This document shows, piece by piece, positions 1 to 57,240 of a DNA stretch of 64,000 bases; within the stretch, counting starts at the first letter, position 1, and the number at the start of each line of letters is the position of its first letter. The notes under the pieces are model-generated. The model did no database searches and was not told where the DNA came from. It was given only the letters and a program-made list of their open reading frames with translations. The DNA is from Squalus acanthias (Eukaryota), in assembly GCA_030390025.1 (NCBI GenBank), contig CM059432.1, positions 4,340,001 through 4,404,000 of the forward strand, written 5' to 3'. The position numbers and the translations under genes were made by a program.

Positions 1-655
1 GCATCAATTGATTGCGGAGAAGGATGGCGTTGTTGTTGGTGCTGCTGGTGTGCCTTGTGCTGCTGGTGTTGGGGCTGATCGTGGTGGGATTCTGAGGACC
101 AAGGTGAGAGAGTATAAAGGGCACCCATGCTGATGGAATAGATGGCAGGCGAAGTAGAGATGACAGAAGTGATCTGTCAATGGTGAGAGAGGTAATGAGG
201 TCAGACTGGATGGAGACTTGTGGAAAGACTTGCAGTGTGCTGAATCTGTTGTGGAAATGCAGTGAGGAAGAGCTTGTGGCTGAGGGAAGATATCTCTGTA
301 AGGTGGGAGCTTTTACTGTACATTTGAAGCTGTCAACTCAACAGCTGATTCAATGGCCACTGCACTCCCGCCTCAGCTTCACAGACGTGGTCCACGACCA
401 ACGTGGACCCTGTGGGCGAGCTGTCAAATGCAGAAGGTGAGCTGAAATTCATTCTCAAGTGGCTCTAAACAAGTCACTAACGACCTGAATTGGGTTCCCC
501 CGCCGCTGCCTGTTGGGTCTGCTCAGCGCTGACAGACCCGCCATCAGGGAAAGGTGTGTGGTGGTGTGTTCACAGCGGGGGAAAAAAAACACTTTCCCAC
601 CCGACCTGCCACCGATCATGCCCGTTGACCCCCCCCCCCCCGCAAAATTCCGGCC
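1..655 (-). mobile_element. Terminal part of a Harbinger-like element running off the window start
   Basis: Ends in ...AAAATTCCGGCC, a TIR like other Harbinger ends here. The minus strand from ATG at 128 reads MGALYTLSPWSSESHHDQPQHQQHKAHQQHQQQ, Q-rich like the transposase N-terminus at 27726. Confidence 0.5.
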
Positions 656-1962: not shown

Positions 1963-2229
1963 GGGCTGGATTTTGATACTGGGGCGGGTTGGGGTCGTGT
2001 CATCTGCATTTCGTGTTATCCACCCGACTGCAATTGGATGTGGGAGATTGATGCAATTTTCACCTAATTGGGCAATTGAGTTCCAGCATGTGGGAACCCA
2101 TGAACCAATTAGTGGTTTCAGTCTGAACGTCGCCTCTGATAATGTCATCATTGCTGCTGCATTGAAGGTCTTCAGAGACTGCCTGGCCTTTGGTGTGAGT
2201 GGACCTGGATGCAAAATGAGCAGCAGCTC

Positions 2230-2268
<39 letters not shown>

Positions 2269-2293
2269 AAGAGAAAGAGAGAGAGAGAGAAAT

Positions 2294-2329
<36 letters not shown>

Positions 2330-2775
2330 TTTTTTTGCATCCAGGTCCTCTCACAGCAAAGGCCAGGCAGTCTCTGAAGACATTCAATGCAGCAGCATCA
2401 GAGGCGACTTTCACACCTAATACTACTACCTTCATCACATCTCCGTTGTAATAGTGGACCTGCAGCTGATAGTCAGCTATCCACTTGTGCTCCCGCCAGG
2501 TTTCACTGGCGTGTTTCACATCAGGCGTGCTTCACGTCGGAAAAGGGTTAAACTAGCTAAAACGTTTCAAAATGGCATTACAAAGCCAATTTAGGGCTTT
2601 AATGGCCTCTCCCGCCTCTTGGAGGCGGGACAGAGTCGGGAACACTGCACACGATTTTATCAAAATTGCGTGGAGGCGGAATGGAGGCGGGATCAGGTCC
2701 GCCCGCCACTTTTCGCAATTTTAACCCCCCACACGCCTCCAAACCCACCTCCACGGTCCTATGAAAATCCAGCCC
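1963..2775 (-). mobile_element. Non-autonomous Harbinger MITE, family A
   Basis: TIR GGGCTGGATTTT...AAAATCCAGCCC with imperfect 3-bp TSD tat/aat. Homologous to 10989-11661, 34488-35173 and the ends of 27240-31219. Confidence 0.85.
2229..2325. repeat. (GA)n microsatellite inside the MITE
   Basis: About 97 bp of imperfect GA repeat. Confidence 0.95.
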
Positions 2776-4707: not shown

Positions 4708-5175
4708 TATAGAATTTACAGCACAGAAACAGGCCCAACCGGTCCGTGCCGGTGTTTATGCTCCACACGAGCCTCCTCCCACCCCTCTTCAACTCACCCC
4801 ATCACCATATCCTTCTATTCCTTTCTCCCTCATGTGTTTATCCAGCTTCCCCTTAAATGCATCTATACTATTCACCTCAACCACTCCCTGTGGTAGCGAG
4901 TTCCACATTCTCACCACTCTCTGGGGAAAGAAGTCTCTCCTGAATTCCCGATTGGATTTATTAGTGACTGTCTTATATTGATGGCCCCTAGTTCTGGTCT
5001 CCCCCCAACAAGTGGAAACATATTAGCCTAGAAATTCATCTCAGGCAGTGATGCAAACCGGACGCTACCGACTGCAATGGAACTGAATATCAGCCGCTGC
5101 GTACAATGGGCGGCCGATTCGATACCGCCTGCTTTGCACCACAGCCCGAGTCAAATTTCTAGGCCCTTCTCTACC
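4708..5175 (-). mobile_element. CR1 3' end fragment
   Basis: Typical CR1 3'UTR (cagcacagaaacaggcc...) and reverse-strand ORF end (FF-QRVVRMWN-like). Confidence 0.8.
5025..5165. mobile_element. ~140 bp MITE with Harbinger-like TIR inserted in CR1
   Basis: AGCCTAGAAATT...AATTTCTAGGCC, flanked by att/ctt. Confidence 0.65.
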
Positions 5176-10988: not shown

Positions 10989-11661
10989 GGGCTGGATTTT
11001 CATTGACCCGTGGAGGCGGGTTTGGAGGCATGTGGGGGGTTAAAATTGCGAAAACCGGTGGGCGGGCACAAGCCCGCCTCCATCCCACCTCCACACAATT
11101 TTCATTAAATCGTGTCTGCTGGTCCCGACTCCGTCCCGCCTCCAAGAGGCGGGATAGGCTGTTAAAGCCCTTAACAAGCACTAAATTGCCTCTATAATGC
11201 CATTTTGAAAGGCCTTTGTGATTTTAACACTTTATCTACGTGAAGCACGCCTGTTCTGAACCACGAATGTGAAACCTGGCAGGAGCACATTTGGATGGCT
11301 GGATGGATGGATGGATGACATATCTGGGAGTGGTGGTGGATGGGAGACATATCTGGGAGTGGTGGTGCAAAAATATCTGGGAGCAGACTTAGGGCTGCTG
11401 CTGCTCATTTTGCATCCAGGTCCTCTCACAGCGAAGGCCAGGCAGTCTTTGCAGACCTTCAATGCAGCAGCAATGATGACATCATCAGAGGCGACTTTCA
11501 GACTGAAAACACTAATTGGTTCATGGGTTCCCACATGCTGGAACTCAATTGCCCAATTAGGTGAAAATTGCATCAATCTCCCACATCCAATTGCAGTCGG
11601 GTTGATAACACGAAAAGTGGATGACATGACCCCAACCCGCCCCAGTATCAAAATCCGGCCC
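10989..11661 (+). mobile_element. Non-autonomous Harbinger MITE, family A
   Basis: GGGCTGGATTTT...AAAATCCGGCCC with a perfect 3-bp TSD CAA. Confidence 0.9.
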
Positions 11662-11914
11662 CAAGAATCAAAGCCCACAGTGTTAAATGATCTACTGTCC
11701 AGCTATCACAGTGATGGGGACAGGAAGACTGGAACCTTGAAGTGAGTTGAATGTCTAGTTCTACACGGAGGTTGCACTCTCCATATTCTGGTTACGCACA
11801 GTACCCATTGTTTTCTAAGTGGATTTCAGAAGACAACGCAAACAAAATGTGTTGTCTCAGTATCATGGGTGGGCTAGCCACTAGGAACAAAACTTTGCAC
11901 AGTAACTGTATTCC

Positions 11915-12724: not shown

Positions 12725-12758
12725 ACCTGGGACATCGGCATGAATCCCAGGAGAGTTT

Positions 12759-13382
12759 GGGGGGAAAATTCGGTTGCTTTGCGCCTCCCGTTAGCACCCT
12801 AAGAGGGCGCTAACGGGGCGCAAAGCAACTAGCGCCCGGGTGCAGCGCCGTCAGTACCTCCCGCAAAATTCAGCGAGAGGTTAGCAGCGGCGGTAACCGT
12901 TAGCGCCCCGCACTATGTCCAATGGGGTCAGGGGGGGGCCTACCTGCGGCCGGGACGGCACAAATTAAAGGGGAGGTGGCGGGCGGCCATTTTTGTTGCT
13001 GGCTGCCTGCCAGCACCTGCCCCCGTTGCCGTCCCCGGCCCCCGTGAAGCCCCCCCCCCAATGCGGGGTGCCGGCTGCTCTCCGTGAGCCCAGCACTCCT
13101 CTTGAGTGCCGGGCTCGTTTGCCAACACTCCCGATCCCTGGTGGCCCAGCCGGGCGCCGTAACGCGCTACGCAAGGCCCCTCCCCTTTATGAAGGGGAGG
13201 ACGGCCTGCAGTACTGCGGCACCTAGCGCCATGATATTCCCTCGCAGCGCCCCAAGAGGGAGGCGGGGCACTTCCAGTAGTGCCCCACTTCCCTCTTGGG
13301 GTGCTACCACTCAATTTTGGCCACGGGGGCGCTAATTTATTCAGGGCGCTAGAAGTAGCGCCCCGGCGAAGTTAGCACCCCC
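12759..13382 (+). mobile_element. GC-rich Harbinger-type non-autonomous element, family B (right end truncated)
   Basis: Starts GGGGGGAAAATTCGGTTG and is rich in TAGCGCC motifs. Homologous to 15842-18212, 40280-40690 and one end of 43579-44472. Confidence 0.7.
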
Positions 13383-15192: not shown

Positions 15193-16140
15193 ATACCGAT
15201 GGACCTGCTCCCAGCACGTTCTGCTTCTCACTTTCTGAATTTAATTGAGGACGAATCAATGGGACTATCCCTCTGTAGTCATTATTCATTGCACTTGCTC
15301 CTTTGAAGTTTGGTTCTAGTCTGAAAAGTCAAGTGCTATTTTTTCCCTCTCCTCCGTGATCATGTATTATCTCCTTGGCTAATTGGGGGCATTAATTAAA
15401 GGAGTGAAATTGTTCCTTATCATCAGATTCGGCAGGTAGCTAACCATGGGGGTGGGGGTGGGGGGACTGAGGCCTCACCTTCCCCCTCGTCACAGGTCCC
15501 GGGACCCCCGTCAGAAGGCCGTTCCTGGTAGTGCGTCAGTTTTGAATTCAGGGTAGACCAGATCAGCATTGCCGTTCACCTCTTCCTATCTCTCCGTTGG
15601 ATACACTCTTGCTGTGCAGAAGCCAACCGAGCCTGTCGAAAAGCACCGCTGGGGCTGGACTTGGCTTTAGGTGATAAAACAGCACAGATATAATTAGGCT
15701 CATCTGTCACTGCTCATTAGTGCGTGCTTGAAAAGTTTGAGGTTCAAATCCAGGCCAGCAAGATTTTGTTGGCTGCCAAACACATTACATGTGCTGATAA
15801 TTCCTGTTTCTCTGTAATCGCACTATTTTATAAACCAAATCAGGGAGAAATTGGGTTGATTTGCGCTTCTCATTAGCGCCACCTGCGGGGGGGGGGGGCG
15901 CAAATCCCCTAGCGCCCGGGCGCGGCACCGCTAACGCCTCACGTGAAATTTAGCGGGAGGTTAATGGCGGCGGCAGCCGGTAGTGCCCCGCTGCGCTGCG
16001 CCGCCGGCAATGACATCATTGCCGTGGGCAGCGCCCCGGCTGCAAACTTCAGCTGCGTCTCCTGACCTATCGCTGGACGATGTGTCCGCCAGGGTCAGGG
16101 GGGCGTTTTTGCAGCTGCGGCGGCGCAAGTAAAAGGGCAA

Positions 16141-17767
16141 TCGTGTCCGTAATCGTCACCATCTTCAAGAAAGGTGACAAGTCCGATTGCGGTAATTACA
16201 GAGGAGTCTCCCTGCTGTCTGCCACAGGGAAAGTAATCGCAAGAATCCTCCTCAATCGCCTTCTCCCAGTGGCCGAAGAGCTCCTCCCAGAGTCGCAATG
16301 CTGATTCCGCCCACTAAGGGGCACAATGGACATGATCTTCACCGCACGTCAATTACAAGAGAAATGCAGGGAACAGCACCAACCGCTGTACATGGCCTTC
16401 TTTGATCTCACAAAGGCCTTTGACACTGTCAACCGTGAGGGATTATGGAGCGTCCTCCTCAAATTTGGCTGCCCTCAAAAGTTTGTCACCATCCTCTGCC
16501 TGCTTCACGACGCCATGCAAGCCGTGATCCTGACCAACGGTTCCACCACAGACCCAATTCACGTACGAACCGGGGTCAAGCAAGGCTGTGTCATCGCACC
16601 AACGCTCTTCTCGATCTTCCTTGCTGCAATGCTCCATCTCACCCCCAGTAAGCTCCACGCTGGAGTGGAGCTAATCTACAGAACAAATGGGAAACTGTTC
16701 AACCTCCATTGCCTCCAGTCCAGATCCAAGGTCGTTCCATCCTCTGTCGTTGAATTACAGTATGCAGACGACGCTTGCGTCTGCGCTCGCTCGGAGGTCG
16801 AACTCCAAACCACCGTCTACACCTTCACCGAAGCGTACGAGAGCATGGGCCTCACACTAAACATCCGTAAGACAAAGGTCCTCTACCAACCTGCTCCCGC
16901 CACACAGTACTGCCCCCCGATTATCAAAATCCACGACAAGGCCTTGGACAACATGGACCAATTTCGATACCTCGGGAGCCTACTGTCAACAAGGGCAGAC
17001 ATCGATGACGAAGTCCAACACCGCCTTCAGTGTGCCAGTGCAGCCTTCGATCGCCTGAGGAAGAGATTGTTTGAAGACCAGGACCTCAAACCCGGCACCA
17101 AGTTCATGGTCTACAGAGCAGCAGTGATACCTGCCCTGCTGTATGCTTCAGAGACATGGACCATGTACAGCAGGCACCTCAAAGCACTGGGGAGGTACCA
17201 CCAACGCTGCCTCCGCAAGATCCTGCAAATCCATTGGCAGGATAGGCACACCAACGTCAGTGTTCTCGCTCAGGCTAACATCCCCAGCATGGAAGCTTTG
17301 ACCACGCTCGATCAGCTCCGATGGACAGGCCACATCGTCCGCATGCCCGATACGAGACTCCCAAAACAAACGCTCTACTCGGAGCTCCGACACAGCAAGA
17401 GAGCCCCAGGTGGGCAGAGGAAAAGTGTCAAGGACACCCTCAAAGCCTCCTTGAAAAAGTGCAACATCCCCACCGACACCTGGGAATCCCTGGCCCAAGA
17501 CCGCTCAAAGTGGAGGAGAAGCAGCCGGGAAGGCGCCAAACACCTCGAGTCTCTTCGCCGGGAGCAAGCGGAAGCCAAGCGCAAACAGCGGAAGGAGCGC
17601 ATGTCAACCCAAGCACCCCGCCCACCCGCCCCTTCAACCACCGTCTGCCCCACCTGTGACAGAGACTGTAGATCCCGCATTGGACTCATCAGTCACCTGA
17701 GAGCTCAATTTTAGTGTGGAAGCAAGTCATCCTCGGTTCCGAGGGACTGCCTAAGAAGATGAAGAAG
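16141..17767 (+). mobile_element. 5'-truncated RTE-clade LINE, young
   Basis: RT ORF, short 3'UTR, (GAA)n tail and perfect 10-bp TSD AAAAGGGCAA (16131-16140 and 17768-17777). Confidence 0.95.
16149..17714 (+). pseudogene. RTE reverse transcriptase ORF (endonuclease missing, one in-frame stop at 16302-16304)
   Basis: IFKKGDKSDCGNYRGVSLL, DLTKAFD, GVKQGCVIAPTLF, YADD, and a C-terminal CPTC...H zinc-finger-like motif. Confidence 0.93.
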
Positions 17768-18277
17768 AAAAGGGCAAGGGTCGGGTGGCCATTTATTTTT
17801 GGCCGACTGCCAGCACCTGCCCCCTTCCCCTTTTTTCCTCGGGGTGCCGGCTGCGATCGCTCAGCCCGGCGCTCCTCTTGAGTGCCGGGCTGTTTTCACG
17901 GCACCCCGCTCTCCGGTGGTCCAGCAGGGCCCCGGTGCGTGCTGCGCTAGGCCCCTCCCCTTTAACCAGGGGAGGGAGGGCTGCAATGACGCGGTGCTAC
18001 ATGCCGGCCCACGTGACGCTGTTACACGTAGTGCCGCGATATTCAGTTGTAGCGCCTCGGAAAGGAGGTGGAGCGCTTCCAGTAGCGCCCTGCCTCCTGC
18101 TTGGGGCTCTACAACTGAATTTCAGGCGGAGAGCGCTAATTTTTTCAGGGCGCTAAAATTAGCGCATCGGCGACATTAGCGCCCCAAAAGGGGCGACACT
18201 CAATTTTCACCCTCTGAATTTGAAGAATTAAGTGGAAATAGAAACTGTAGAAGTTTGCAGTATGGAAGAAAACCATT

Positions 18278-25970: not shown

Positions 25971-26722
25971 GGGCCAGAAATTCGTCTCTCCGGCTTCCCG
26001 CGGGTGCACGTACTTGCCTACCGCGCCTGCCGTTGTGCTTCGGGCTCGCGTGGAATTCGGATCCTGGGCCTCCTGCAGCTGCCGGAGCGCAGTGCTTGCG
26101 TATCCCAGGGGCGCAGTTAGTTCAAAGCGTCCCCTGGGATCACGTGGGCCATGGAGAGCCAATCGGAGCAGGGAATCTCCATTCATAGATTTGACAGGAA
26201 GACCTGTCAAATCTATGAATAGAGATCGGCCCCAAAATCTCACTAAAACTTCAAGTAAATTTTTTTTTAAAATCACATTTTTAAAATAACTATAACTTAC
26301 ATAAATTAACTACTTTAAACAAAAATTTAAATTTTTGAAAAAATTAATTACACTTTTTAACGGTGCTAAAAATAAACTTACCTTTCTTTAAAGTATGTAA
26401 AAAAGATAAACCTGCTGAAAAAATGTTTAAATTGTACTTAATTCACCACTTACCTTGTTAAAAGCAGGCCTTGCGCCTCCTTTTTCCCCGCGCAGCTTCT
26501 CCGTACTTACCCTCACGGAGAAACCTGAAAAAAAAACAAAGTTCGAGGTCTAGGCGCTGCCTCTCCGGCGCACGCGTTCAACCTCTGAACCCCTTCCTTC
26601 AGGGGAACGGAAGTTCCGGTTTCCAGCGCATGCGCAGTGCATGCACGAAACCGGCACTTTCGTTGGGTCTACGGGTGAGTACCCAGCGCGTACTCACCCG
26701 TGGGGACCCGAATTTCTGGCCC
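25971..26722. mobile_element. Harbinger-type MITE, family C
   Basis: Perfect 14-bp TIR GGGCCAGAAATTCG and perfect TSD AAT. Confidence 0.9.
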
Positions 26723-26984: not shown

Positions 26985-27227
26985 TACAAAAAGGGACTTA
27001 GAGGCCCTGGAGAAGGTGCAAAAAAAAAAGATTCACAAGGATGATGCCAGAACTGAGAGGATATACTTATCAGGAAAGACTGAACAGGCGGGGGCTCTTT
27101 TCTCTGGAAGTGAGAAGGCTGAGGGATGACCTGATAGAGGTCTTTAAGATTCTGAAAGGGTTCGATAGGGTAGACGTAGAGAAGATCTTTCCACTTGTGG
27201 GGGAGACCAGAACTAGAGGCCATAAAT
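26985..27227 (+). mobile_element. CR1 fragment
   Basis: ORF 27041-27232 reads YQERLNRRGLFSLE...TRTRGH. Confidence 0.85.
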
Positions 27228-27725
27228 CATAGAGTCATGGGGCTGGATTTTACCAGCCCTGAGGAGGCGAGTTTGGAGGCAGGACTGGTGGGAAAGTTGG
27301 AGAAAATGACGGCGGGTTCCGATCCCGCCGTCAACCCGCCTCCGCGCAGCTTTGCCAGAGGCGGGCTTGCAGAGTCCGTTTCAGTTGCGCCTCCAGGCGG
27401 CGGGATAGGCCCTTAACTATCACTTAAGTACCTCTATAATCCCAGTTTCAGAGGTCTTTCAAATTTTGCCACATTTCCAGCGTGCTGCACGTCTCTCCTG
27501 GAACACGCCAGCTAATCCTGTCGGGTTGGCAAGTGGCTGGCTTCCTAACAGCTGCAGCTCCACCATAAAAACGGAGCTCTCAACAAGGCTCAGTTGCAGG
27601 TGGCAGAACTTTGTTTTTTCAGGTCTTGGAGAACTTTTTGCAGATCCACTGATCTTGGAAGTGGTGAAGCTGAGAGCCATCTCCACTCTGACCTCCTGGG
27701 AAAACCCTCTCCCCACATTGACTGA

Positions 27726-28972
27726 GTGCTTCCTCAACAGAGATATCTACCATCAGATTCGGAGGACGAGCAGCCGCGGCAGCAGCAGAACCAGGAACAA
27801 CAGCAGCAGCAAAAGCAGCAGGAGCGCCAAACTCCTGCTCAGTCACCTGATGGTGCACAGGGCAGAAGATGCCAGTGCAGGGAAGCACGTCGCCGCAGGA
27901 GATACCCCAAAAACAGGGATTACAAGATGAGGATGAGCTTCCTCAACATGACCGAGCAGCAGTGCCAAAGGAGGCTGAGACTTTTGCGAGAGGTTGTCTG
28001 AGAGATCTACTCAATGCTGCACCAACACCTGGTGCCCAGAGGAACAGGTGGACACCCATTACCAGTGGCTGTCAAAGTCACCACCGCACTCAACTTTTTT
28101 GCTTCAGGCTCCTTCCAGGGCTCATCAGCAGACATCAGCGGCATCTCCCAGTCGGCCGCACACAATTGCATCACGCAGGTTACCGATGCCCTCTTTGCAA
28201 AGGCGCACAATTACATCCACTTCTCCACGGATCAAGCAAGTATAACCGCGCGTGCGGTTGGCTTTGCAAATATGGCAGGCTTGCCAAGGGTGCAGGGCAT
28301 CGTAGACTGCACACATGTGGCCCTTAAAGCACCCCATCACAATCCAGGTCTATTTGTCAACCGCAAAGGCTTCCACCCCTCAACGTGCAGCTGGTGTGTA
28401 ACCACAAGAAGGACATTTTGCATGCTTGCGCCAAGTACCCTGGCAGTTGCCATGACTCCTTCATCCTGCGCCAGTCTAGTGTGCCTCTGCTCTTCAGTCT
28501 GCCAAACCAACTTTGTGGATGGTTACTTGGAGACCAGGGCTATCCCCTGAAGACATGACTAATGACGCCATTCAGGAGGCCATCCAACGAAGCTGAGGAG
28601 CGCTACAACTCCAGCCACATTTTGACCAGATCCATCATCGAGCAAACCATCGGCTTGCTGAAGATGCGATTCAGATGCCTTGACAGATCAGGTGGTGCCC
28701 TGCAGTACTCAGCAGCCAGGGTCTCCAGAATCATCATGGTCTGCTGTGCACTGCACAACATCGCACAGCATCATGGCTTGTAGCTGTCTGAGGAACAAGT
28801 GGCTCAGCGCATAGCCTCCTCAGATGAGGATGAAGAGGAGGAGGAGGAGGAGGAGGAGGAGGAGAACGAGAATGAAGACCGTGCTGATGCGCATCAACCA
28901 GCTGAAGCAGCACGTTAGCACATTGCTGCCCAGGATGCAAGGGATGCACTCATCTTGGCCAGATTTGCTTAA
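27726..28972 (+). pseudogene. Harbinger (HARBI1-like) DDE transposase, disrupted; true start uncertain
   Basis: Motifs [63 protein letters not shown] and an acidic tail. Stops at 27999, 28556 and 28781 plus one more in the tail, and a frameshift at ~28377. Confidence 0.93.
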
Positions 28973-29209
28973 GTTTCCCATTCAAACACATGTGCCTAGC
29001 ACCTTCTTACCATACCATAGACAATGGACACTCTGACCACCATCATGACAAATACAATTTGCCATGAGCCCTCAATGTGGAACTTCCATTTGCGAAATGA
29101 CACAGCCCAGAACTTCAACAGTTTGCCATCACTTCATTTTAATACATTGACTAAAGGATGGCATTTAACAATTAAACACAACAGAACACCCAAGTGACTA
29201 CCCTTGTGA

Positions 29210-30932
29210 CTACTTGTGCTTTATCTTCCTCTTATGCGTGCTTCTACGTGGTGCCTCCCCTGTGGCTTCAGCAGATGTGGAGGCACCTTGCTCACTTTCA
29301 TGCTGCTCCTGCTTCGACACCTTTGGCGGGCGTCCTTGGGTTTGCGAGCCTGTGAGGGCTCGCCAACAGTCTGCTCCTCCTGCGGCTGTGCAGGGGCTGA
29401 GACGCCCATCTCAGTTGGGTGAGGACTCTGGTGGGGCTCTGACCAAGGGCTCCGCAGTGGCAGGGGAGTGTGAGCGCTTGGAGAGGAGCCCCACTTCAGT
29501 GCTAGCAAGTGGCTTGACAGCACCTTGCTGCACATCATGGGGGCCATGAGGACCTGTTTCTGCACTGGCAGTCCTACTCCAGAGGACTTCCATGAAGGTC
29601 TGGTTTCTCTGCTCAATAGCTGTCCATCGCTCCTCCAGAGATGTCAGTCTATTCTGAACATTCACCATGTTTTCCACACACTGGCGACTTAGCTCCTCCA
29701 TCCGCTCCACACTCACAGTGACCCTGGAGACAAAACCTGCCAGAGACTCCTGCACCTGTTCCTGGAGTTCCAGCACCGCTCTCGTTCTGGATGGACCCGG
29801 GGGCACAGGGTCAACATGCAGCTCAGCCGAGCTGGCAGAGTCCTGTGCCCTCCGACGAGGACTCTCCACTGCTGTCCCTGTCTCCACCATCTGCTGATGC
29901 TCACTTGTGAGCTGTGATACACAAGGTGACAACTCTACTCTATCTCCCGAAGGTCCCACCAAGGTGTGTGTGTCTGCGCTGGTGCTGGGTGCGCTTAATT
30001 CTGCTGACGCTGCGCCCTCAGAGGTTGCAGGTTCCTCTGAGGAGTCTTCCAGCTCAGCCTCTTCCTCCTGGACAGTGGGGAGGGGGGCTGTCGATGGTCC
30101 TGTGGAGGAGTAAAGGAATGAGTTAGACATGTGATATAAACGTTGCATGCACATGGAATTGTGCAGATGATCAAAACTATTCTGTCACCAGCTTGCTCTG
30201 ATGTGCCTGTCTGTCCGTCCCCCACTTCCACATCCTCCTCAGCGCCAGCGATCTCTAGGGTCGCCTCCACTGTGCTGGTAAGATGGACTATTGAGGGTGG
30301 CCCTCCTCCAGTCTTTGTCCTTTCCCTCTTATTGTGGGCTCTCTTTTCCTGCAATGAGGGACACAAGTGGAGTTTGAGTGAGAATGATGGAGTGAGTGTA
30401 AATAATCCATAGCATAGATGCTTAGAAGAACACAAAGATGGAGTGAGGTCCCAAGACCAAGGGCCCTCCCTGTGTGTTGTTAGTTGTTGTCATAGCATAA
30501 CAGCGATAGTGAGTGTGAGGGCAGCATAGTCGAATAGTTAAGTGATTGTGCACATAGAGAGAGAGGGAATGGTTAAGGGTGCAAGGGATGTAAGGGTAAA
30601 GTGGGATGTGTAGGAATAGGTTGATAATGCAGTGTGATGGTGCTGAGAGGAGATGGGGAGCAGAATGAGGTTAAAGGTGATGGTATACTCACTTTGTCTG
30701 TTCGGACAAGGTCATTGAACCTCTTTCGGCACTGCAGCCAGGTTCTGCTGCACATCGATGTGGCATTCACCTCCTGGGCAACTTGCAGCCACACAGCTTT
30801 GGTCTGCTGAGGAGGTTTTTTCCTCCCAGAGGATGGAAACAACACCTCCTTTTGTGCTCTGGCTCCCTCCACCAGAGCATGGAGTGAGTCATCATTAAAG
30901 CGAGGTGAGGCCTTGGGCCTTGAAGTAGACAT
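29210..30932 (-). pseudogene. Harbinger Myb/SANT-like DNA-binding protein, 3 exons (30693-30932, 30189-30348, ~29210-30099)
   Basis: Exon 1 reads MSTSRPKASPRFNDDSL...W...RTWLQCRKRFNDL. GT-AG introns in phase 0 and 1 join it to EKRAHNKRERTKTGGGPP and to ORF 29411-30154. There is a stop at 29411-29413 before a basic C-terminus (RRSTHKRKIKHK*). Confidence 0.85.
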
Positions 30933-31219
30933 TCCACTAGCTCCAAAAACGATTTTCAACAGAAGCAAACACAAGTGTTTCGGCACAAAATGAACCAAGG
31001 CTGCTTGGAGCCCTTAAATACAGCTGGAGAAATGACGTCATCAGAGGCGAGTTTCAGGCACAAAAAACTCATTGGGCCAGGGGTTCGCACACGCTGGGAA
31101 TCAATTGCCCAATTAGGGCAAAATCGCAATTTTTTCTCGCCCGACAGTGAAGGCGGGATCAGGACCTGCCGACCACCTGACCTGCACCCAACCCGCCACC
31201 AATGGCAAAACTCCAGCCC

Positions 31220-31715
31220 ATAGAGTCATACGGCACCGAAGGAGGCCATTCGGCCCATCGAGTCCGTGCCAGCTCTCTGTAGAACATTCCAGTCAGTCCC
31301 ATTCCCCCGCTCTATCCCCGTAGCCCTGCAAGTTTATTTCCCTCAAGTGCCTATCCAGTCTCCCCTTGAAAACATTGAGTGTCTCCGCTTCCACCACTTC
31401 CGTCAGCAGCAAGTTCCAGGTCCTCACCACTCGCTGCGTAAAAAAGTTAAGATATAGGGAATTCAGGAGAAACTTCTTTACCCAGAGAGTGGTGAGAATG
31501 TGGAACTTGCTACCACAGGGAGTGGTTGCGGTGAATAGTATAGATGCATTTAAGGGGAAGCTAGATAAACACATGAGGAGAAAGGAATAGAAGGACATGC
31601 TGATGGGGTTAGATGAAGAGGGGTGGGAGGAGGCTCGTGTGGAGCAGAAACACCGGCACGGACCAGTTGGGCCGAATGGCCTGTTTCTGTGCTATAGACT
31701 CGATGTAACTCTATG
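31220..31715. mobile_element. Two CR1 3' ends back to back (- 31220-31447, + ~31447-31715)
   Basis: FFTQRVV motif on both strands, with tails at each outer end. Confidence 0.8.
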
Positions 31716-32214
31716 CAACTATTACACAAAAGTATAAATATCTGAACCCTTGGATAGCAGGCTAATATCCGTCACCCAACAGAAGGAAATCAAACCGCAA
31801 TCTCGAGTTCCAAATGTATTAATTCTGGTTTATCAATAAATCAACTGCTTTTTGCCATCAGCAGAATTTGACTAACCCTCTCTGAGGAGAGTTTGCAAAT
31901 CGTTACATGAATTGTAAAATAAAGATGGATCTGTTTCATATTCCAATACAAATTATACGGCGAGATTGTGCAAAGTATGTCTTTGCAAAAGTGCTTATAA
32001 ACTGTTTACTTCAATAAAAATTGTTAATTGCAAACTAATTGCATTTACTTGATGACATACAATAGTATAGATTTCAGCTAATAGGACCGAATTGCTCTTA
32101 ACACCGCTTGAACTAAGGCAAAACAAAATTGTATTCATGTGCAGAACCAGAGACAACTTAATTTTCCTTTTAGCCGAGATCGTGAATGATTTTGTGGGGT
32201 TTTTTTTGTTTAAT

Positions 32215-32955
32215 CAATAAGGAGAAACTGTTTCCACTGGCAGCAGGGTCAGTAACCAGAGGACACAGATATAAGGTAATTGGCAAAAGAACCAGAGGGG
32301 GAGATGTGGAAAAACATGTTTTAACGAAGCGAGTTGTTGTGATCTGGAATGCGCTGCCTGAAAGGGCGGTGGAAGCAGGTCGGATATATAGTTAAAAAGG
32401 AGAAATTTGCAGGACTATGGGCCAATGTTCCCTTTAATTTTAATTTGGGTGCGCGGTCCCTTTAACTGCGCAGCCCACTCAAATTTTCGCACATGCGCAA
32501 TTTCTTGCATTGAAAAGCCGGTGAGCGGCCTGCGCGGGATCCCCCAGACCCGCCACGCGACCGCATGGCCGCTCAGCTTAACGGGAGTGTTGCTATACAA
32601 CAACAACAACAACTTGTATTTATATAGCGCATTTAACGTAGTAAAACATCCCAAGGCGCTGCACAGGAGTATTTTAAGACAAAGAAATTTGACACCGAGC
32701 CACATAAGGATAAATTAGGGGCAGGTGACCAAAAGCTTGGTCAAAGAGGTAGGTTTTAAGAAGCGTCTTAAAGGAGGAGAGAGAGGTAGCGAGGCGGAGA
32801 GGTTTAGGCAGGGAATTCCAGAGCTTAGGGCCTAGGCAACAGAAGGGAAAGAGCAGGGGGGAGTGGGACTAATTGGAGAGCTCTTTCACAGAGCCGGCAC
32901 AGGCACGATGGGCTGAATGGCCTCCTTCCGCGCTGTATCATACGATGATTCTATT
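32215..32955 (+). mobile_element. CR1 3' end containing a hAT MITE and an L2 3' fragment (-, ~32597-32845)
   Basis: Reads KLFPLAAGSVTRGH. A (CAA)n L2 tail lies at 32597, and the CR1 3'UTR resumes at ~32845. Confidence 0.8.
32423..32592 (+). mobile_element. hAT-type MITE, same family as 24973-25130
   Basis: CAATGTTCCCTTTAA...TTAACGGGAGTGTTG. The right TSD is cut by the L2 insertion after CTAT. Confidence 0.75.
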
Positions 32956-34035
32956 TAGTTCAAATACTCAACAAAGGATGTTGCTGAAATTTAGAATTTA
33001 AATAACAATCGGATAACTTCCTTTAAAAACAATTTAACTATATGTACCAACCTTGAGATTAAATATTAATAATGGAAAGGTGAAGTCATAAGAATTAGGA
33101 GCAGGAGTAGGCCATTCGGCCCCTCGAGCCTGCTCCGCCATTCAATAAGATCATGGCTGATCTTCTACCTCAACTCCACTTTCCTGCACTATCCCCAAAT
33201 CCCTTGATTCCGTTAATATCAAAAAATCTGTCTTGAATATACTCAACGACTGAGCCTCCACAGCCCTCTGGGGTAGAGAATTCCAAAGATTCACCACCCT
33301 CTGACTGAAGAAATTTCTCCTCATCTCAGTCCTAAATGGCCGACCCCTTCGGCCTAGTCTACTCAATCTCTCCTCATAGGAAAATCCCCCCATCCCAGGA
33401 ACCAGTCTGGTGAACCTTGCACTCCCTCTATGGCAAGTATATCCTTCCTTAGGTAAGGAGACGAAAACTGTACACAATACTCCAGGTGTGGTCTCACCAG
33501 GGCCCTATATAATTGCAGTAAGATGTCTTTACTCTTACACTCAAATCCTCTTGTGATAAAGGCCAACATACCATTTGCTTTCCTAATTGCTTGCTGTACC
33601 TGCATGTTAACTTTCAGTGATTCATGTACAAGGACACCCAGGCCCCTCTGAACACCAACATTTCCCAATCTCTCACCTATTAAAAAATACTCTGCTTTTC
33701 TATTTTTCCTACCAAAGTGGATAACTTCACATTTCTCCACATTATATTCCATTTGCCATGTTCTTGCCCACTCACTTAGCCAGTCTATATCCCCTTGAAG
33801 CCTCCTTGCATCCTCCTCACAACTTACATTCTCACCCAGCTTTATATCATCAGCAAACTTGGATGTATTACATTTGTTCCCCTCATCCAAATCATTGATA
33901 TAGATTGTAAATAGCTGAGGTCCAAGCACTGACCCTTGCGGTACCCCACTAGTTACAGCCTGCCAACCCGAAAATGACCCGTTTATTCCTACTCTCTGTT
34001 TTCTGTCCGTTAACCAATCCTCAATCCATGCTAGT

Positions 34036-35439
34036 TGTAGCACTTTCTCTTACTACTGTTTGGACCTCGAGAATTACGAATTAGCTTAACAATGACAGAC
34101 AAGGATGTGATCAATAAAATTGATCTTTTAATCAGACTATAGTTCACAATTCAAGTGTACATAGAAGCACCTTTGGCAACAAATTCAAAGAACTCCCGGC
34201 AATAAATATGCCGGCAACTTATCAATTCAAAGTATATAAAAGTGCCCCTTTAATGATTCAAATGTACATAAAGTACCCCCTTTAACAACATCTAAGCCCA
34301 TGTCCAATTTTCATACATACTCCTTCATTTCTGGGTGATCGGTCAAAGGAAACTGTGAGTCGAAACATGAACTGGCCAGCTTTCTCACTTCAATCTTCCT
34401 CCTGCTTTGTCTTCTCTGTTCTCCTTCTTATCTCTGAAAACTCCCGCCACTGGGTTATAAGGCCTCGTTGATCGTAAATTACTCTCTGGGCTGGATTTTC
34501 ATTGACCCGTGGAGGTGGGTTTGGAGGCGTGTGGGGGGTTAAAATTGCGAAAACTGGCAGGCGGGCACAAGCCCGCCTCCACGCAATTTTTATTAAATCG
34601 TGTCTGCTGGTCCCGACTCCGTCCCACCTCTAAGAGGCGGGATAGGCTGTTAAGGCCCTTAACAAGCACTAAATTGCCTCTATAATGCCATTTTGAAAGG
34701 CCTTTGTGATTATAGCCCTTTTTCTATGTGAAGCACACCTGTTCTGAACCACGAATGTGAAACCTGGCGGGAGCACTTTTGGATAGCTGGCTAGCAGGCA
34801 GGCTGGCTGGCCGGTTGGATGGATGGATGGATGGATGATCTGGGAGTGGTGGTGGATGGGAGACATATCTGGGAGTGGTGGTGCAAAAATATCTGGGAGC
34901 AGACTTAGGGCTGCTGCTGCTCATTTTGCAGGTCCTCTCACAGCAAAGGCCAGGCAGTCTTTGCAGACCTTCAATGCAGCAGCAATGCTGACATCATCAG
35001 AGGCGACTTTCAGACTGAAAACACTAATTGGGTCATGGGTTCCCACATGCTGGAACTCAATTGCCCAATTAGGTGAAAATCGCTGCAATCTCCCACATTC
35101 AATTGCAGTCGGGTGGATAACACGAAAAGCGGATGACACGACCCCAGCCCGCCCCAGTATCAAAATGCAGCCCTCTGCCTCCCTTGGATAGGTCAGTTCC
35201 ACTCCAAACCTTCCCTAATTGGAGTTCCATCCGCATGACACATTCCTGTTCCTGTCAGATGTATCTTCTCCCCTTCTTGTCCAGGTGGCCTCTACTGACC
35301 ACCATTTTGTGTCTTCACAAACAAAGACCACCTGCTGATTTCTTACATTTTAAATCCGTCCGTTATCATCTCACAGTTCGTTCGCAATTTCGATCTCCAC
35401 ACGGTCGCAGCGTTTTATTACACTTTTCAGAATCTTACA
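34036..35439 (-). mobile_element. Solo LTR (~715 bp without the nested MITE); orientation tentative
   Basis: TGTA...TACA termini and perfect 4-bp TSD TAGT (34032-34035 and 35440-35443), cleanly interrupting the CR1. Confidence 0.8.
34488..35173 (+). mobile_element. Non-autonomous Harbinger MITE, family A
   Basis: GGGCTGGATTTT...AAAATGCAGCCC with perfect TSD TCT. Very similar to 10989-11661. Confidence 0.9.
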
Positions 35440-38070: not shown

Positions 38071-38150
38071 AGAATGCAATCCCAGCATTTCAGGAACCAT
38101 CTGCACAGTATTCAACCATATGTACTGGTATAGACTCTTATAGAGTCTTA

Positions 38151-39026
38151 GGCTGCGATTTTGTCATTGGATACGGCTTGGGAGCGAGTCAGCTGGTTTC
38201 TGGGTTCCAGTCCCGCCCCCAACTGCATCCGGCCAACGGACGTGATTTTACGTCGATTGACCGTGTTAACCCCGCCCTGCGGGCTTGCCGGCCAATTAAG
38301 AGGAAGCCGGTCAGATGATGTCATTTGATGACACGACATCTGCCGGTGTTCTTAAAGGGACCACGCACAATTGTTCTTTGACAACTCATTTCTCAGTGTT
38401 TGACAGCCTTGAGGTGCTGCAAACACGGACAATGACTGTTCACAGGTGAGCTCTTGCACCCAGGCTCTCCAGTGACTCCCTCCTTAGGCTAGAACAGATG
38501 GCAGCTGCAGGTGAGGTTACAGAAGCAATCTGTGACTGGTGAGAGAGGTTCTCCCGATGAGGTGGGACTAGACAGCCAATTCAAAACTTGTTACCGACAG
38601 AAAAGAGTAAATACATTAAAAATGATTTTCCCAACATTTCCTTACCTCTGAAACTCACCAGTGCACCATTGGATCCTTCACACCACTTATGCAGCTGTCA
38701 TCAATGCAGAAACATTACAGCAGACCCACAACACGCCAGACTTACCTGGCGTGGTGTCCGGACGTCGGGGAACCCGAGGCAGAAGTGGCAAAATAGAAAA
38801 AGAGCCTGTTAACAAGTATCAAGTAACTGTTAACAGCCAGGTAAGTGGCTTTAATCCTCTTCCCGCCGCTAGGTGTCGGGTCCATGCGCAAATCAGGGAC
38901 CCAACACTTGGGAAGATTGATTGGAGGAAGGTTGACAGCGGGTTTCCTGCCCGCCGTCAATCTTTGCGATTTTGACAGCGGTCCCGCCTCCAATCCCACC
39001 CTCCGAGGACTGGCAAAATCCCGGCC
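38151..39026. mobile_element. Older Harbinger-type non-autonomous element
   Basis: GGCTGCGATTTTGTCA...TGGCAAAATCCCGGCC (3 mismatches), inserted in a CR1 (GAGTCATA)n tail. Confidence 0.7.
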
Positions 39027-39658
39027 AAAGAGTCATAACGGCACAGAAGGAGGCCATTCGGCCCATCGAGTCCGTGCTGGCACTCTGCAGAGCAATCCAG
39101 TCAGTCCCATTCCCCCGCTCTATCCCTGTAGCCCTGCAAGTTTATTTCCCTCAAGTGCCTCTCCAGTCTCCCCTTGAAAACATCGAGTGTCTCCACTTCC
39201 ACCACTTCCGTCGGCAGCGAGTTCTAGGTCCTCACCATTCGCTGCGTAAAAAAGTTTATCCTCACATCCCCACCCCCCTGTATCTCTTGACCTAAACCTT
39301 AAATCTGTATCCCCTAGTCCTTGTACCATCAACTAGTGGGAACAGCCTTTCCCCGTCTAGCCTATCCAAACCCGTCATAATCTTGTACACCGCGATCAAA
39401 TCACCCCTCAACCTCCTTTGCTCTAATGAAAACAAATCCAGCTTCTCCAAACTGTCCTTCTGGCTAAGATCCCCCCATCCCCGGAACCATTCTGGTAAAT
39501 CTCTGCACCCTCTCGAGGGCCTTCACATCCTTCCTAAAGTGTGGTGACCAGAACTGGACGCAATACTCCAGTTGTGGCCTAACCAACGCGTTATAAAGGT
39601 TCAGCATAACTTCTCTACTTTTGTACTCAATACCTCTATTTATGAAGCCCAAGATCCC
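39027..39658 (-). mobile_element. CR1 3' part
   Basis: Reads LYNALVRPQLEYCVQFWSPH. Confidence 0.88.
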
Positions 39659-39969: not shown

Positions 39970-40690
39970 GGGGGCTAAATTGTGTGGCGCCTGATTTTTA
40001 GGCGCTAAACCGCCACATAAGGATCGTAAATGGTGGCCGAGAGGCTTGTGCACACTTCTGTCGGGAAACGCGCCGGACGCCATCTTGGTAAAGGAGTTTG
40101 CGCGCACCTAACGACCGTCGGCAACATGCAGAGCAGCAAGATGATGGCGCAAATTAGCGTGCAACGCTGATGTGACACCAGCGCTGCAATTTACAAGCTC
40201 CACGCTCCAGCCAATGCCCTGTCTTAACCTCGCACAGCTGAACACGGCGTTAAATGGAACGAAGGACCACCCCCCCTTGTTTTTGCGGCCGCGGCGGCGC
40301 AAATTAAAGGGCAGGTGCTGGGCACCCATTTTTTGTGGGCCGCTTGCCAGCACCTGCCCCCTCTCGCTTCCTTCTGCGGGGTGTCGGCCGCGATCGGTCA
40401 GCCCGGCGCTCCTCTTGAGTGCCGGGCGCTTTTGCCGGCACCCCGCTCCCCGGTGGTCCAGCAGGGACCCGGTGCGCGCTGCGCTAGGCCCCTCCCCTTT
40501 AATCAGGGGAGGGAGGCCTGCAGTACCGCGGCGCTACGTGCCGGCTCGCGTGTCGCTGTTGCACGTAGCGCCGCCATATTGAACGGGAGCGCCCCGAGAG
40601 GGAGGGGGGAGCGCTTCCAGTAGCGTCCCGCCTCCTGCTTGGGGCGCTACCATTGAATTTCGGGCGCGGGGGTGCTAACCTTTTCCCCCA
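39970..40690 (+). mobile_element. Composite GC-rich DNA-element fragments (family B part ~40280-40690)
   Basis: Starts GGGGCTAAATTG. The second half matches 12945-13340 and 17780-18150. Confidence 0.6.
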
Positions 40691-43578: not shown

Positions 43579-44472
43579 GGGGGAAAAATTCAGTATCGCC
43601 CCGTTTTGGGGCGCAATTATCGGCCGGACGCAAAGATTAGCGCCTGGCGTTAATTATCGTCTCCGACTGCAAACTTGACTTTTATCGCCCCGTGAGGTGA
43701 TTGGAACGCTAAATCAGGCGCTACACATCTGTCTTAAGACGAAAAGGCCGAGGAGCGAGGCACTACCTCAGAGCGCTGGCGAAGCTCATGTGATGTCAGT
43801 CAGCAATGGAACACACACACAATAGCGCCGGCCAGTTCTTAAAGGGGAGGGTTGATCTTGCTTTCCATCCACATCCTGCTCATTGCAGCCTTGAATCTCG
43901 GCCTGGAGAGACCTGTACATCAAATCTGCTGGAAAGAACAATGGAGAGAACCAGGGAAAGAGCTCAGAGTGCAACCCCCACAGTCTCTTCTAAATCAATG
44001 CAAGGAAGGTCAAATCAAAATGAACCTGCAAAGTGCTGCTCAGTACCCAAAACTCCTTCACACTGCGTTGAATCTCTCCAGAAGTCTGTCTCTCTCTCTC
44101 TTAGAAAGCGTGGTTCAAAAATGTCACCAACAAAAAAAGGCAGGAAGCGGTCGCCTTTAAATAGCGCTCCCCCAGTCCCTTCCTGACTGCAAAACGCTCC
44201 CCTCAACCTGTCGTTGCTAGCGGCAGGCAGTAAGGCAGGGGGCGCCACTCAATATCCGCTCCGGGGCGCTACCGGGGCGTTGCGCACTCGACTGACGTCA
44301 CAATCTGCCGGCGCAGGAAATCGTGGCGGTAGTGTTTAGCGCCATCGCAAAATGTCTGGTTAATTTCGCGTGCGGCGCAAACATCACCGCGCACGGGCGG
44401 TAGTTGCTTTGCGCCCCATTAGCGCCCTCTTAAGGTGCTAACGGGAGGTGCAACCAACTGAATTTTTCCCCC
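43579..44472 (-). mobile_element. Harbinger-type non-autonomous element (family B ends, different interior)
   Basis: Perfect 16-bp TIR GGGGGAAAAATTCAGT, flanked by tta/ata. Confidence 0.85.
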
Positions 44473-50033: not shown

Positions 50034-50316
50034 GGGCTGGGAAATTGGACCCATTTGCGCCGGACGTCACGGCCGGTTTAGAAGTAAAGATGGCAGACGC
50101 CTCGCTTCGGCCCGCTTCCAACGGGTCCCGCGGCAGCCAAACTTTATTGGCCAGTTAACTGCACCCGATATTGCCCAGCCCCCCACCAACCCCCTCCCCA
50201 TTCAGCACTAAGCCAATCAGCAGTGCGTTTAGTGCTAAGATCAGCGCTGCAATCATTAGAACGAGCAGGCAGCTCGAATTTTGCTGCTTTTCGGGGCTTA
50301 TCCAATTTCTGGGCCC
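50034..50316. mobile_element. Small Harbinger-type MITE
   Basis: GGGCTGGGAAATTGGA...TCCAATTTCTGGGCCC. No clear TSD. Confidence 0.6.
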
Positions 50317-55989: not shown

Positions 55990-57240
55990 AAATTGAGGGG
56001 CAGGAATAGACAAGCTGGTCCATCGAGCCTGCCTTACGAAGGATGAAACATCATGACGAGACCCATCACCCATTCCATTCCCACCCGCAAACCCCCCCCC
56101 CCCACCACCACCCCCACCCCACAGCCGTGTAACCTCCTGGGAGAGGATAAAAAACCAGCTCAAACCCAGGGCCAATAAGGCTGCAACACTCTGGAAAATT
56201 CCTCTCGCACTCCCTCAGGCGATCGGAACCAGTCCAGGAGATCACACGGGCCAAGGGGTGAATTTTAACCCCCAGGAATGGGTGGGTTGGGGTCTGGTCA
56301 GGTGTAAAAAAAAAAAAAAAATTTTTAATCTGAAACCCAACCCCCAATTCGCCTCCATCCTGCCCACTTCCGGGTTTAACGGAGGCGGGACACGGGGCGG
56401 GCAGCCAACCCGCTCGCAGGAGGTTGGGTTGGCAATTTAAGTATGTTAATGAGGCTGGCAGTAATGTTCCCTGCAAGCTGCCCGGTCGAGCAACGCTCCG
56501 GGGATCCCGCACAGCCGGCTTGCCGTCTTTTCAATACAGAAACCGCGCACGCGCAGTATTTTGAGTGGGGCCCACGCAGCCCCTGAAAGGAGCCGCGAGG
56601 CGCCAAAAAAAATCGGATGGCAGCCTCGGATTTAACCTGCTTTGCCGGTTTCACAGTGGCCGGCCCCGTTTCCCAGGCCTCGGGAAACCCGGCAGCTGAA
56701 GGGAGGCGAGAACAGCTTTGGGCAGAAGGTAAGTGCCTTCACAGCACTGGTTGTGGGCCAGGAGAAGCAGGAGCGCTTCCCCCCCGGCTCTCCCCCCCGC
56801 CCAAGCTCCTCCCCATCAGACCTCCCCCCATACAGAGACCCCCGGGGTCTGGGATCGGACGCCTCCCTGCCCCGGATTGGGGATCAGACCCCTCCGGGAT
56901 CCCAGTAGCAGCTTTAGGCTCCCGACCTGCTCCTGCGGCCTGCTTTGAAGTCCCCCCCGCCCAACTGGAAGCCAAGCCTGTCAATCAGGGCAGGTTACCT
57001 GTCAAGGAGAAAGGTTGCATGTAAACTCCACAGCAAGTGTACCAGTCAGAAACTCCAGCCCCCCCCCACCCAGCCTATGTAACCCGCCCCTGTCAATATC
57101 GGCACCCAAGCGATATCTGTAAAGACGTTTACCTTCTATATGATGCGATCCATGCCCCTGTCAAGAATCGGTCCAGCTCCCTCTTGAAGGGAGACAGAGA
57201 AATTGCTCCCAACACACCAGCTGGCAATGCATTCCAGAGG
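55990..57240 (-). mobile_element. CR1-like 3' end (family of 50440-51290) interrupted by nested DNA elements
   Basis: The sequence is continuous across 56254/57110 when compared with the uninterrupted segment at ~50570-50600. Confidence 0.7.
56255..57106. mobile_element. Harbinger-type non-autonomous element containing a reversed hAT MITE (~56462-56615)
   Basis: TSD CAA on both sides with degenerate TIRs. The internal piece TAATGTTCCC... is related to 24973 and 32423. Confidence 0.6.

Follow-up and report, generated by a model that had tools for sequence, protein, structure and literature searches.

Harbinger elements of one clade (clade A) in the shark Squalus acanthias occupy a palindromic 13-bp site, and the GAGTCATA tail of CR1 retrotransposons, which spells this site exactly, is likely targeted through its sequence alone. 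The sample was one 64-kb stretch of genomic DNA, referred to here as the window, with six clade-A elements (at 27240, 38151, 655, 1963, 10989, and 34488). The element search was seeded with the terminal inverted repeats (TIRs) named in an earlier, sequence-only reading of this DNA, and the resulting catalog holds 14 elements. The clade-A motif is far above chance and is not circular, that is, it does not depend on the tail insertions themselves.

Clade A includes a defective autonomous-type Harbinger (E4, 27240..31219; 3980 bp) with 12-bp TIRs, GGGCTGGA(T/G)TTT, and two convergent genes; a nonautonomous element in the second GAGTCATA tail (E6, 38151..39026); and an element truncated by the window start (1..655), the right flank of which, ATA-GACTG, is outside detected repeats. 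The clade-A MITEs at 10989..11661 (GAGAC-CAA-GAATC) and 34488..35173 (TACTC-TCT-GCCTC) have exact target site duplications (TSDs) and nonrepeat flanks. A further MITE, at 1963..2775, lies within a CR1-type body repeat at TACTC-(T/A)AT-GCCTC and was placed in clade A by homology to the elements at 10989, 34488, and 27240. The flanking pentamers of the MITEs at 1963 and 34488 are identical. Among the other families, the element at 25971..26722 (TIR GGGCCAGAAATT; GAGTT-AAT-GTTTC), within another abundant repeat, fits the motif in part (rank 296); the one at 43579..44472 (TIR GGGGGAAAAATT) lies against a ATAGAAAC CR1 tail with TSD copies TTA/ATA and does not fit; and the one at 56255..57106 (CGGGC-CAA-GCGAT), in a repeat, fits at +1 G and +3 S only (rank 6413). 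A short MITE at 5025..5165 in a CR1 body (TSD ATT/CTT) has half-sites that match +3 S and +4 T but not +1 G. For the short MITE-like element at 50035..50315, a matching TSD was absent in both registers tried. Three elements had been omitted by the sequence-only reading: 12759..13381, related to the element at 43579, with its right end apparently lost; 15841..18213, also related to that element and interrupted by a LINE that carries an RT domain (~16140-17768); and 39970..40689, related to the preceding one, with an empty paralogue for its left junction and a putative right end. Boundaries were confirmed by a single 3-nt copy in empty in-window paralogues for 1963-2775 (three paralogues), 25971-26722, 56255-57106 (paralogue at ~50580-50650), and 5025-5165.

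The information content of the flanking positions, read outward from the TSD, was high at +1 to +5. The 17 ends of the sequence-only reading gave 4.04 bits compared to a null mean of 0.68, all 26 cataloged ends gave 2.75 bits compared to 0.43, and the 20 ends left without the three tail elements gave 2.55 bits compared to 0.57; in each case, 0 of 4000 random sets was as high. For these 20 ends, positions +6 to +10 were flat (p 0.52). In clade A, +1 G and +4 T were found at 11/11 ends, +3 S at 10/11, and +2 A and +5 C at 8/11 each, and without the tail elements +1 G and +4 T were still found at 7/7. Other families had +1 G at only 5/15 ends. Motif ranks were computed over the 51,283 positions of the element-free window with matrices that rest on 7 to 16 ends, in six settings (three training sets by two pseudocounts); four ends of uncertain register (the right end of 39970..40689, the left end of 15841..18213, and both ends of 50035..50315) are within the 26-end count but outside a 22-end count and the matrices. 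Leave-one-element-out ranks were 10, 65, 1, 10, and 1, and the other families ranked 296 to 8953 under the clade-A matrix.

These results bear on the consensus proposed earlier. All nine quoted junctions are present, with G after the right TSD copy in 9/9 and C before the left copy in 6/8, and the information content and the exact TSDs bear out an extended palindromic preference around a variable, AT-rich, non-TWA 3-nt TSD. However, the full GA(G/C)TC half-site was confined to one clade (6/14 elements) rather than to several families, as had been claimed, and the remaining families share mainly +4 T. The two MITEs (5025 and 50034) had been set aside as misfits; together with the three omitted elements they have +1 G at only 1/9 ends but keep +3 S and +4 T at 8/9 each. 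The TSDs themselves are degenerate. The exact ones, in four elements, are CAA, AAT, TCT, and CAA; TWA, the narrow PIF/Harbinger criterion, and TNA were both absent from these four, and CWG was found in 0/9 two-ended elements having a TSD. The copies mismatch in 4/8 two-ended elements of the sequence-only reading (for E6, TTA/AAA, 2/3 bases differ), and TTA was seen only as a single copy in two mismatched pairs. At one putative end (18213), CTG comes next.

E4 shows the insertion in most detail. Its HARBI1-like DDE transposase remnant (28002..28780, plus strand) is in pieces, with a frameshift at ~28376, internal stops, and an N-terminal part from ~27700. Two pieces are above the cutoff for Pfam DDE_Tnp_4 (E 2.2e-09 and 4.8e-13), catalytic-type motifs (VDCTH, LGDQGY, and IEQTIG) are present, and the closest relatives are shark and ray proteins named "putative nuclease HARBI1" (identity ≤70%). 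The first coding part of the Myb/SANT-like gene (30690..30938, minus strand) matches Myb_DNA-bind_5 (PF13873; E 2.2e-10), and more of its coding sequence is likely in 29411-30489; a Pfam search of 29414-30094 gave no match. To the left of E4 is a remnant of a (GACTCTAT)n CR1 tail (27228..27239, minus strand; TSD copy ATG at 27237-27239), and to the right (31220..31452, minus strand) are the TSD copy ATA, the remaining tail, and the 3′ end of a 5′-truncated CR1 of the GAGTCATA-tailed subfamily. This CR1 is nested inside a plus-strand CR1. Contigs from four runs connect 27227 to 31454-31459, which means that the outer CR1 is unbroken in other copies. The contigs of these 4 of 21 listed runs were aligned to 27100-35260, and the joints and loose ends listed for them were nearly all CR1, with none at a Harbinger end, the contigs having 5723 further joints and 22821 further loose ends beyond those listed. 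They therefore yield neither element flanks nor a tail share, and their summed depth does not give a copy number; runs with small shares, from fish gut metagenomes, were left aside. Neither the element-end pattern, scanned for in contigs from viruses and metagenomes, nor the CR1 3′-end pattern, scanned for in contigs from viruses, metagenomes, and prokaryote genomes, had any match (0 in each). The CR1 3′ end beside E6 (39027..39270, minus strand) is of the same subfamily as that at 31220-31452, with 93% identity between the two hosts over 149 nt; the E6 end at 39026 and the E4 end at 27240 are 71% alike over 99 nt.

The window contains 26 homologous CR1-type 3′ ends with octamer tails, of which the end at 33094 has an RT domain (Pfam RVT_1) upstream of it. 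We provisionally take these ends to be CR1 from octamer tails such as those in PMC2612034 and from a similarity to the C terminus of ORF2. On the CR1 strand, the tails vary by subfamily (GACTCTAT, GATTCTAT, GTTTCTAT, GTTCTTAT, and GTTCCTAT), and only GACTCTAT is a perfect clade-A target. Both CR1-tail sites (GAGTC-NNN-GAGTC) ranked joint 1 of 51,283 under six of six matrices trained without tail elements, and the element-free window contains just two perfect GA[GC]TC-NNN-GA[GC]TC sites, those that hold E4 and E6. By tail variant, the ranks were 1 for GAGTC, 35 for GAATC, 816 for GAAAC, and 11133 for ATAAGAAC; tails of the ATAAGAAC and ATAGGAAC types have background-level scores. Thus, the earlier claim that the CR1 tail perfectly matches the preferred target holds for the GAGTCATA tail, even with tail insertions excluded from training, but not for abundant CR1 tails in general, as this variant is found at only 2/26 CR1 ends. 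Likewise, of three elements described as in or against CR1 tails, those at 27240 and 38151 are in GAGTCATA tails, whereas the one at 43579 adjoins its tail at a site ranked ~7,000 to 14,000 of 51,283. In a check of whether the CR1 beside 43579 postdates the element, a matching flank was not found at the far end of that CR1.

The geometry of the site suggests how the tails come to be hit. The transposase complex likely reads the two half-sites of GA(G/C)TC-NNN-GA(G/C)TC, with a 3-bp AT-rich duplication between them. Each 8-bp tail repeat consists of the 5-bp self-complementary GANTC plus 3 bp and so recreates the order half-site, 3 bp, half-site, once per unit, with the result that any two neighboring units form a full palindromic target. 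A complex of DDE transposase and Myb-like protein would then insert via a 3-nt staggered cut, as presumed from other PIF/Harbingers. Insertion into a dead CR1 end would be a by-product, maybe a harmless one, for which neither a targeting factor nor selection would be required.

Whether tails are hit beyond this prediction was assessed by count. Against uniform chance there is an excess of tail insertions (P ~0.002). However, the expected tail share rises from 2.0% under uniform chance to 4 to 26% under the matrices, and with the clade-A matrix the probability of 2 or more of 6 is 0.09 to 0.48; the tail insertions are therefore largely expected given the motif match. Softer matrices leave a residual: in three of the six settings, the probability of 3 or more of 14 is 0.018 to 0.058, and the weakest matrix gives 0.022 for 2 or more of 6. 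It is in part from this residual that an adaptive safe harbor could be argued, in which specificity was selected for a co-active CR1 tail, or chromatin or tethering acts at CR1 ends, so that tails are hit beyond sequence prediction. Both GAGTCATA tails are filled, by different elements in opposite orientations (2/2 compared to 1/24 for other tails; Fisher p 0.009), and 2/2 (lower 95% bound, 16%) is high for a passive preference. In addition, a third family adjoins another tail, and where the clade differs from zebrafish Harbinger3_DR, at +2 A and +5 C, it agrees with the tail. We nevertheless consider this reading unlikely, since 4/6 clade-A elements are outside tails, the motif is found again without the tail elements, the matching tail is a minority variant, and both intact GAATC-ATA-GAATC tail sites (1378 and 5183; rank 35) are unoccupied. 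In this one window, 2/6 clade-A elements and 3/14 overall are in or against tails, so that most copies are not in one host repeat position, as they would be in a safe haven, and with more than half of the window being repeat, no special refuge is needed. Adaptive safe-harbor targeting, the mechanism suggested by the sequence-only reading, is thus unsupported. An extreme form of it, in which the clade half-site moved from G-T-S-T-T to G-A-S-T-C to match a co-active CR1 tail and GACTCTAT tails act as a sink that is highly occupied throughout the genome, is a long shot; if true, the specificity of a cut-and-paste transposon would track the replication signal of a LINE.

The same residual could come from survival, if insertion is guided by the motif and longer retention in dead CR1 ends inflates the tail share. 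Longer retention is the standard expectation for neutral DNA. Yet 6/14 elements lack any flank within a detected repeat, and the 8/14 that have one are at background level (54% of bases; P 0.53). No ORF resembling a host gene was found among the 31 ORFs listed for the window, so selection is probably weak throughout it, which makes survival bias an improbable source of the tail share. It is more improbable still that hand-picking and misplaced boundaries in a small sample generated both the motif and the tail link. The sequence-only reading had itself cautioned that its sample was small and hand-picked, and it left out three elements and set aside two MITEs without +1 G; the mismatched TSD pairs and the misfit at 43579 point the same way. 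But the signal persists with all 26 ends and without tails, it stops at +5, the empty paralogues fix the boundaries of four elements, and the omitted ends retain +3 S and +4 T. We therefore favor a sequence match between the clade-A site and the GAGTCATA tail.

Comparison with described systems indicates a known target preference in altered form: a Harbinger with a degenerate TSD and a GA(G/C)TC half-site. E4 has the features of the PHIS superfamily (DDE_Tnp_4, though the gene is broken, a Myb/SANT second gene, short G/A-starting TIRs, and a 3-bp TSD) and those of NuwaI (a GGG-starting TIR within the class range of 12 to 61 bp and DDE plus Myb_DNA-bind_5), and its anatomy, as predicted from sequence, is that of NuwaI minus the CWG duplication. 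Zebrafish Harbinger3_DR, listed as NuwaI-2_DRer in Table S5 of Han et al. 2015 (PMC4482050), has the target AAACACCWGGTCTTT with half-site G-T-S-T-T-T, according to the available part of PMC3016246. Like E4, it has DDE_Tnp_4 and Myb_DNA-bind_5 genes, a 12-bp TIR, and a length of ~4 kb (4204 bp compared to 3980 bp), and in both the 3-bp TSD lies within a longer palindromic target with +1 G, +3 S, and +4 T. Unlike Harbinger3_DR, the shark elements have a variable, AT-rich TSD (CAA, AAT, TCT, or ATA-like), never CWG, and clade A has the half-site G-A-S-T-C, a signal of ~13 bp rather than 15, and a best target that coincides with a LINE tail. The 22 ends of settled register, from clade A and other families, match the Harbinger3_DR half-site at +1, +3, and +4 in 15, 17, and 19 cases, respectively, compared to 5, 4, and 8 at +2, +5, and +6, which is no better than chance. 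For this reason, we only infer common ancestry of the two motifs: the core +1 G, +3 S, and +4 T was likely inherited from a lineage that includes Harbinger3_DR, and +2 A and +5 C would be clade-specific drift. NuwaII, in the available text of PMC4482050, has a conserved C|TNA|G around its 3-bp TSD, TIRs starting with GG, and DDE and Myb/SANT genes. The C before and G after the clade-A TSD, the pair pointed out in the sequence-only reading, resemble this, but the vertebrate NuwaII families listed there carry Myb_DNA-bind_4, and that description gives no preference at +2 to +5. Plant PIF/mPing elements also have a preference extending past the 3-bp TSD, of 9 bp, called general to characterized PIF/Harbinger elements; unlike the shark elements, they have a TWA-type TSD and a shorter motif, and the available portion of PMC2836001 describes no link to LINE tails. 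The shark CR1 3′ ends bear a short 8-bp terminal repeat in 1 to 4 copies, as do bird CR1s with their octamer tails NATTCTRT/TTCTGTGA (PMC2612034), but the shark variants are subfamily specific, and the first of them (GACTCTAT) is the sole perfect clade-A target.

The GA(G/C)TC-half-site variant with its degenerate TSD extends the short list of target motifs described for animal Harbingers, and a classification of PHIS groups based solely on the TSD (TWA, CWG, and TNA) breaks down for these shark-type elements. A transposon adapting to another transposon would be a new case only if occupancy exceeded the sequence match. In annotation, CR1 tails split by Harbinger ends are to be expected. The nesting has a simple geometric reason, in that a 5-bp palindrome within each 8-bp repeat remakes the full target with each unit, and one LINE subfamily thereby spreads perfect sites for a DNA transposon.

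The target flanks of the Harbinger-like elements carry a palindromic motif. All flank/TSD/flank junctions quoted in the sequence-only reading were present in the window exactly as written, and its counts of G after the right TSD copy (9 of 9) and C before the left copy (6 of 8) were reproduced. Counted outward from each element end after the 3-nt TSD, positions +1 to +5 held 4.04 bits of information in the 17 ends of that reading (null mean, 0.68), 2.75 bits in all 26 ends (null mean, 0.43), and 2.55 bits in the 20 ends left without the three tail elements (null mean, 0.57); for each set, none of 4,000 random sets was as high. Positions +6 to +10 gave no signal once the tail elements were left out. 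The motif was sharpest in clade A, six elements joined by sequence homology (the one ending at 655 and those at 1963-2775, 10989-11661, 27240-31219, 34488-35173, and 38151-39026): all 11 ends had G at +1 and T at +4, 10 had S (G or C) at +3, and 8 each had A at +2 and C at +5. Of the 15 ends outside clade A, only 5 had the +1 G and 11 had the +4 T; this T, not stressed before, is the strongest of the shared bases. Among the nine ends outside the earlier count, with register unverified in four, +1 was G in one, whereas +3 was S and +4 was T in eight each. This means that the MITEs (5025-5165 and 50035-50315), said not to fit, indeed depart from the motif at +1 but fit a looser core.

Elements were sought by TIR patterns and by homology within the window, which gave 14, including three new ones at 12759, 15841-18213, and 39970; because the search started from the TIRs already noticed, the catalogue is not fully unbiased. 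Empty paralogous sites in the window confirmed the 3-nt duplication and the boundaries of the elements at 1963-2775, 25971-26722, and 56255-57106 and of the 5025 MITE. A TSD could be read at both ends of nine elements, with exact copies in four (CAA, AAT, TCT, and CAA), none of them TWA, TNA, or CWG, and differing copies in five (1963, 5025, 27240, 38151, and 43579), four of which mismatched at the first plus-strand base. In this small sample, the mismatch rate is higher than expected from the 5 to 12% divergence among MITE copies.

Several further arrangements were observed. The independent MITE copies at 1963 and 34488 lie in opposite orientations between the same pentamers, TACTC and GCCTC, and an empty site with these pentamers occurs at 5785 within a repeat body of CR1 type; high-ranking targets are therefore dispersed by CR1 bodies as well. 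The insertion site of the element at 25971, GAGTT-AAT-GTTTC, belongs to an abundant repeat (paralogues at ∼7160-7210, 26785, 39760, and 53150). The element at 15841-18213, related to that at 43579-44472, is interrupted by an RT-bearing LINE at ∼16140-17768 (RVT_1, E 3.7e-26) flanked on both sides by an apparent 10-bp duplication, AAAAGGGCAA. At 5025-5197, a CR1 body contains a 141-bp MITE ∼10 bp from the start of a second CR1 tail, the two insertions being near each other; a short palindromic MITE-like stretch similar to this MITE, its ends obscured by runs of G and C, is found at ∼48990-49135. Long inverted repeats at 22262-23357 (502-nt arms, 93%, 92 nt apart), 7094-7279 (91-nt arms, 99%, 4 nt apart), and 52100-52689 (multipart arms, 83 to 92%) each appear to be one repeat paired with its inverted copy.

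The claim that the motif equals the CR1 tail repeat was borne out for one tail variant. Non-tail insertions supplied the training ends (7, 11, or 16) for scoring matrices at two pseudocounts, and all six matrices put the sites of the tail elements at 27240 (E4) and 38151 (E6) in a tie for first place among the 51,283 positions of the element-free window. Since the training ends came from non-tail insertions, the match is not circular. A small-sample artefact as the source of the motif and the tail link is very improbable. These two sites are also the only perfect GA[GC]TC-NNN-GA[GC]TC sites in the element-free window. Leave-one-element-out ranks were 10, 65, 1, 10, and 1 for clade A, compared to 296, 6413, 7094, and 8953 for sites of other families. 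The tail is the top target because GAGTC is self-complementary but for its centre and 5 plus 3 gives the 8-bp period; any two adjacent 8-bp units make a full palindromic target. Instead of the 8-bp unit, the left remnant of the E6 host tail (38129-38150) repeats with a period of 10 bp (TATAGACTCT / TATAGAGTCT).

Three of the 14 elements lie in or against tails, which make up ∼2% of non-Harbinger bases, and this exceeds uniform chance (P 0.0014 to 0.0038), although the one at 43579 is from a different family with a site off the motif. The tails were described as abundant, but only 2 of the 26 CR1-type 3′ ends in the window, from one subfamily (93% identical), carry GAGTCATA, the variant that spells the target. 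Both of these are occupied, compared to 1 of the 24 others (Fisher p 0.009). No element occupies the two intact GAATC-ATA-GAATC tail sites (rank 35), and the scores of ATAAGAAC and ATAGGAAC tails do not rise above background. With positions weighted by the matrices, 4 to 26% of insertions would be expected in tails, and P for two or more of six is 0.09 to 0.48 with the clade A matrix and 0.02 to 0.19 with the others. Most of the tail excess is therefore explained by the motif, and a small residue may lie beyond it. Of the proposed interpretation, the extended palindromic target is supported and a safe-harbour mechanism is not. Adaptive targeting of tails, to which the residue might be ascribed, is unlikely, and survival bias among the insertions is equally so. 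There is no general pull to repeats, since a flank lies in a repeat detected in the window for 8 of 14 elements, and such repeats hold 54% of bases (P 0.53).

In E4, an autonomous-type Harbinger that is now broken, 12-bp TIRs enclose a fragmented DDE_Tnp_4 transposase gene on the plus strand and, convergent to it, a Myb_DNA-bind_5 gene. The best named among 23 protein relatives are from sharks and rays (identity, ≤70%), which supports the earlier label of a shark lineage. Its host site is the (GACTCTAT)n tail of a 5′-truncated minus-strand CR1-type end, itself inserted within a plus-strand CR1. Position 27227 is joined to 31454-31459 in contigs of all four sequencing runs compared, so the outer CR1 is intact in other copies. 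In these runs (X1, X2, X16, and X19; three organisms; interval 27100-35260), summed contig depth of the E4 interior is on the order of 1e5 to 1e6 and nears that of CR1 pieces; such depth, which is not copy number, points to a very large family of E4-like elements common to related species. External contig searches yielded no usable element-end flanks from outside the window.

PIF/Harbinger transposition requires both proteins, and target preferences in the group extend over 9 bp in plants and 15 bp in vertebrates (PMC2836001); the portions seen of PMC8151067 and PMC9710019 held nothing further on targets. The Harbinger3_DR target is given as AAACACCWGGTCTTT (PMC3016246, in part). Its half-site, G-T-S-T-T-T, agrees with our 22 verified ends at +1 (15/22), +3 (17/22), and +4 (19/22) but not at +2 (5/22), +5 (4/22), or +6 (8/22). 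The text and tables of Han et al. (PMC4482050) place Harbinger3_DR in NuwaI (CWG TSD, GGG-starting TIR, DDE_Tnp_4 plus Myb_DNA-bind_5) and give NuwaII as C|TNA|G, and the figure logos there may bear on flanking preferences. Compared with these, E4 has NuwaI anatomy without the CWG TSD and NuwaII-like flanking C and G without the TNA TSD. It belongs to the PHIS superfamily and would act like Harbinger3_DR; judged from anatomy and TSD, it can be placed in neither Nuwa group. The motif, its clade limit, the 3-bp duplication, and the rank of the tail sites were observed directly; a transposase complex would recognize a half-site on each side of a 3-nt staggered cut and would choose the tail as the best of the available sites. 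That CR1 elements can end in octamer tails is already known (PMC2612034, in part), and no report of Harbingers in CR1 tails was found in titles and opening abstract lines on Harbinger with sharks, CR1, target specificity, or LINE tails, a set including few subscription papers or repeat databases. The target preference of this clade is a known kind in a new form, and its match to the tail of one CR1 subfamily is neat and probably incidental.
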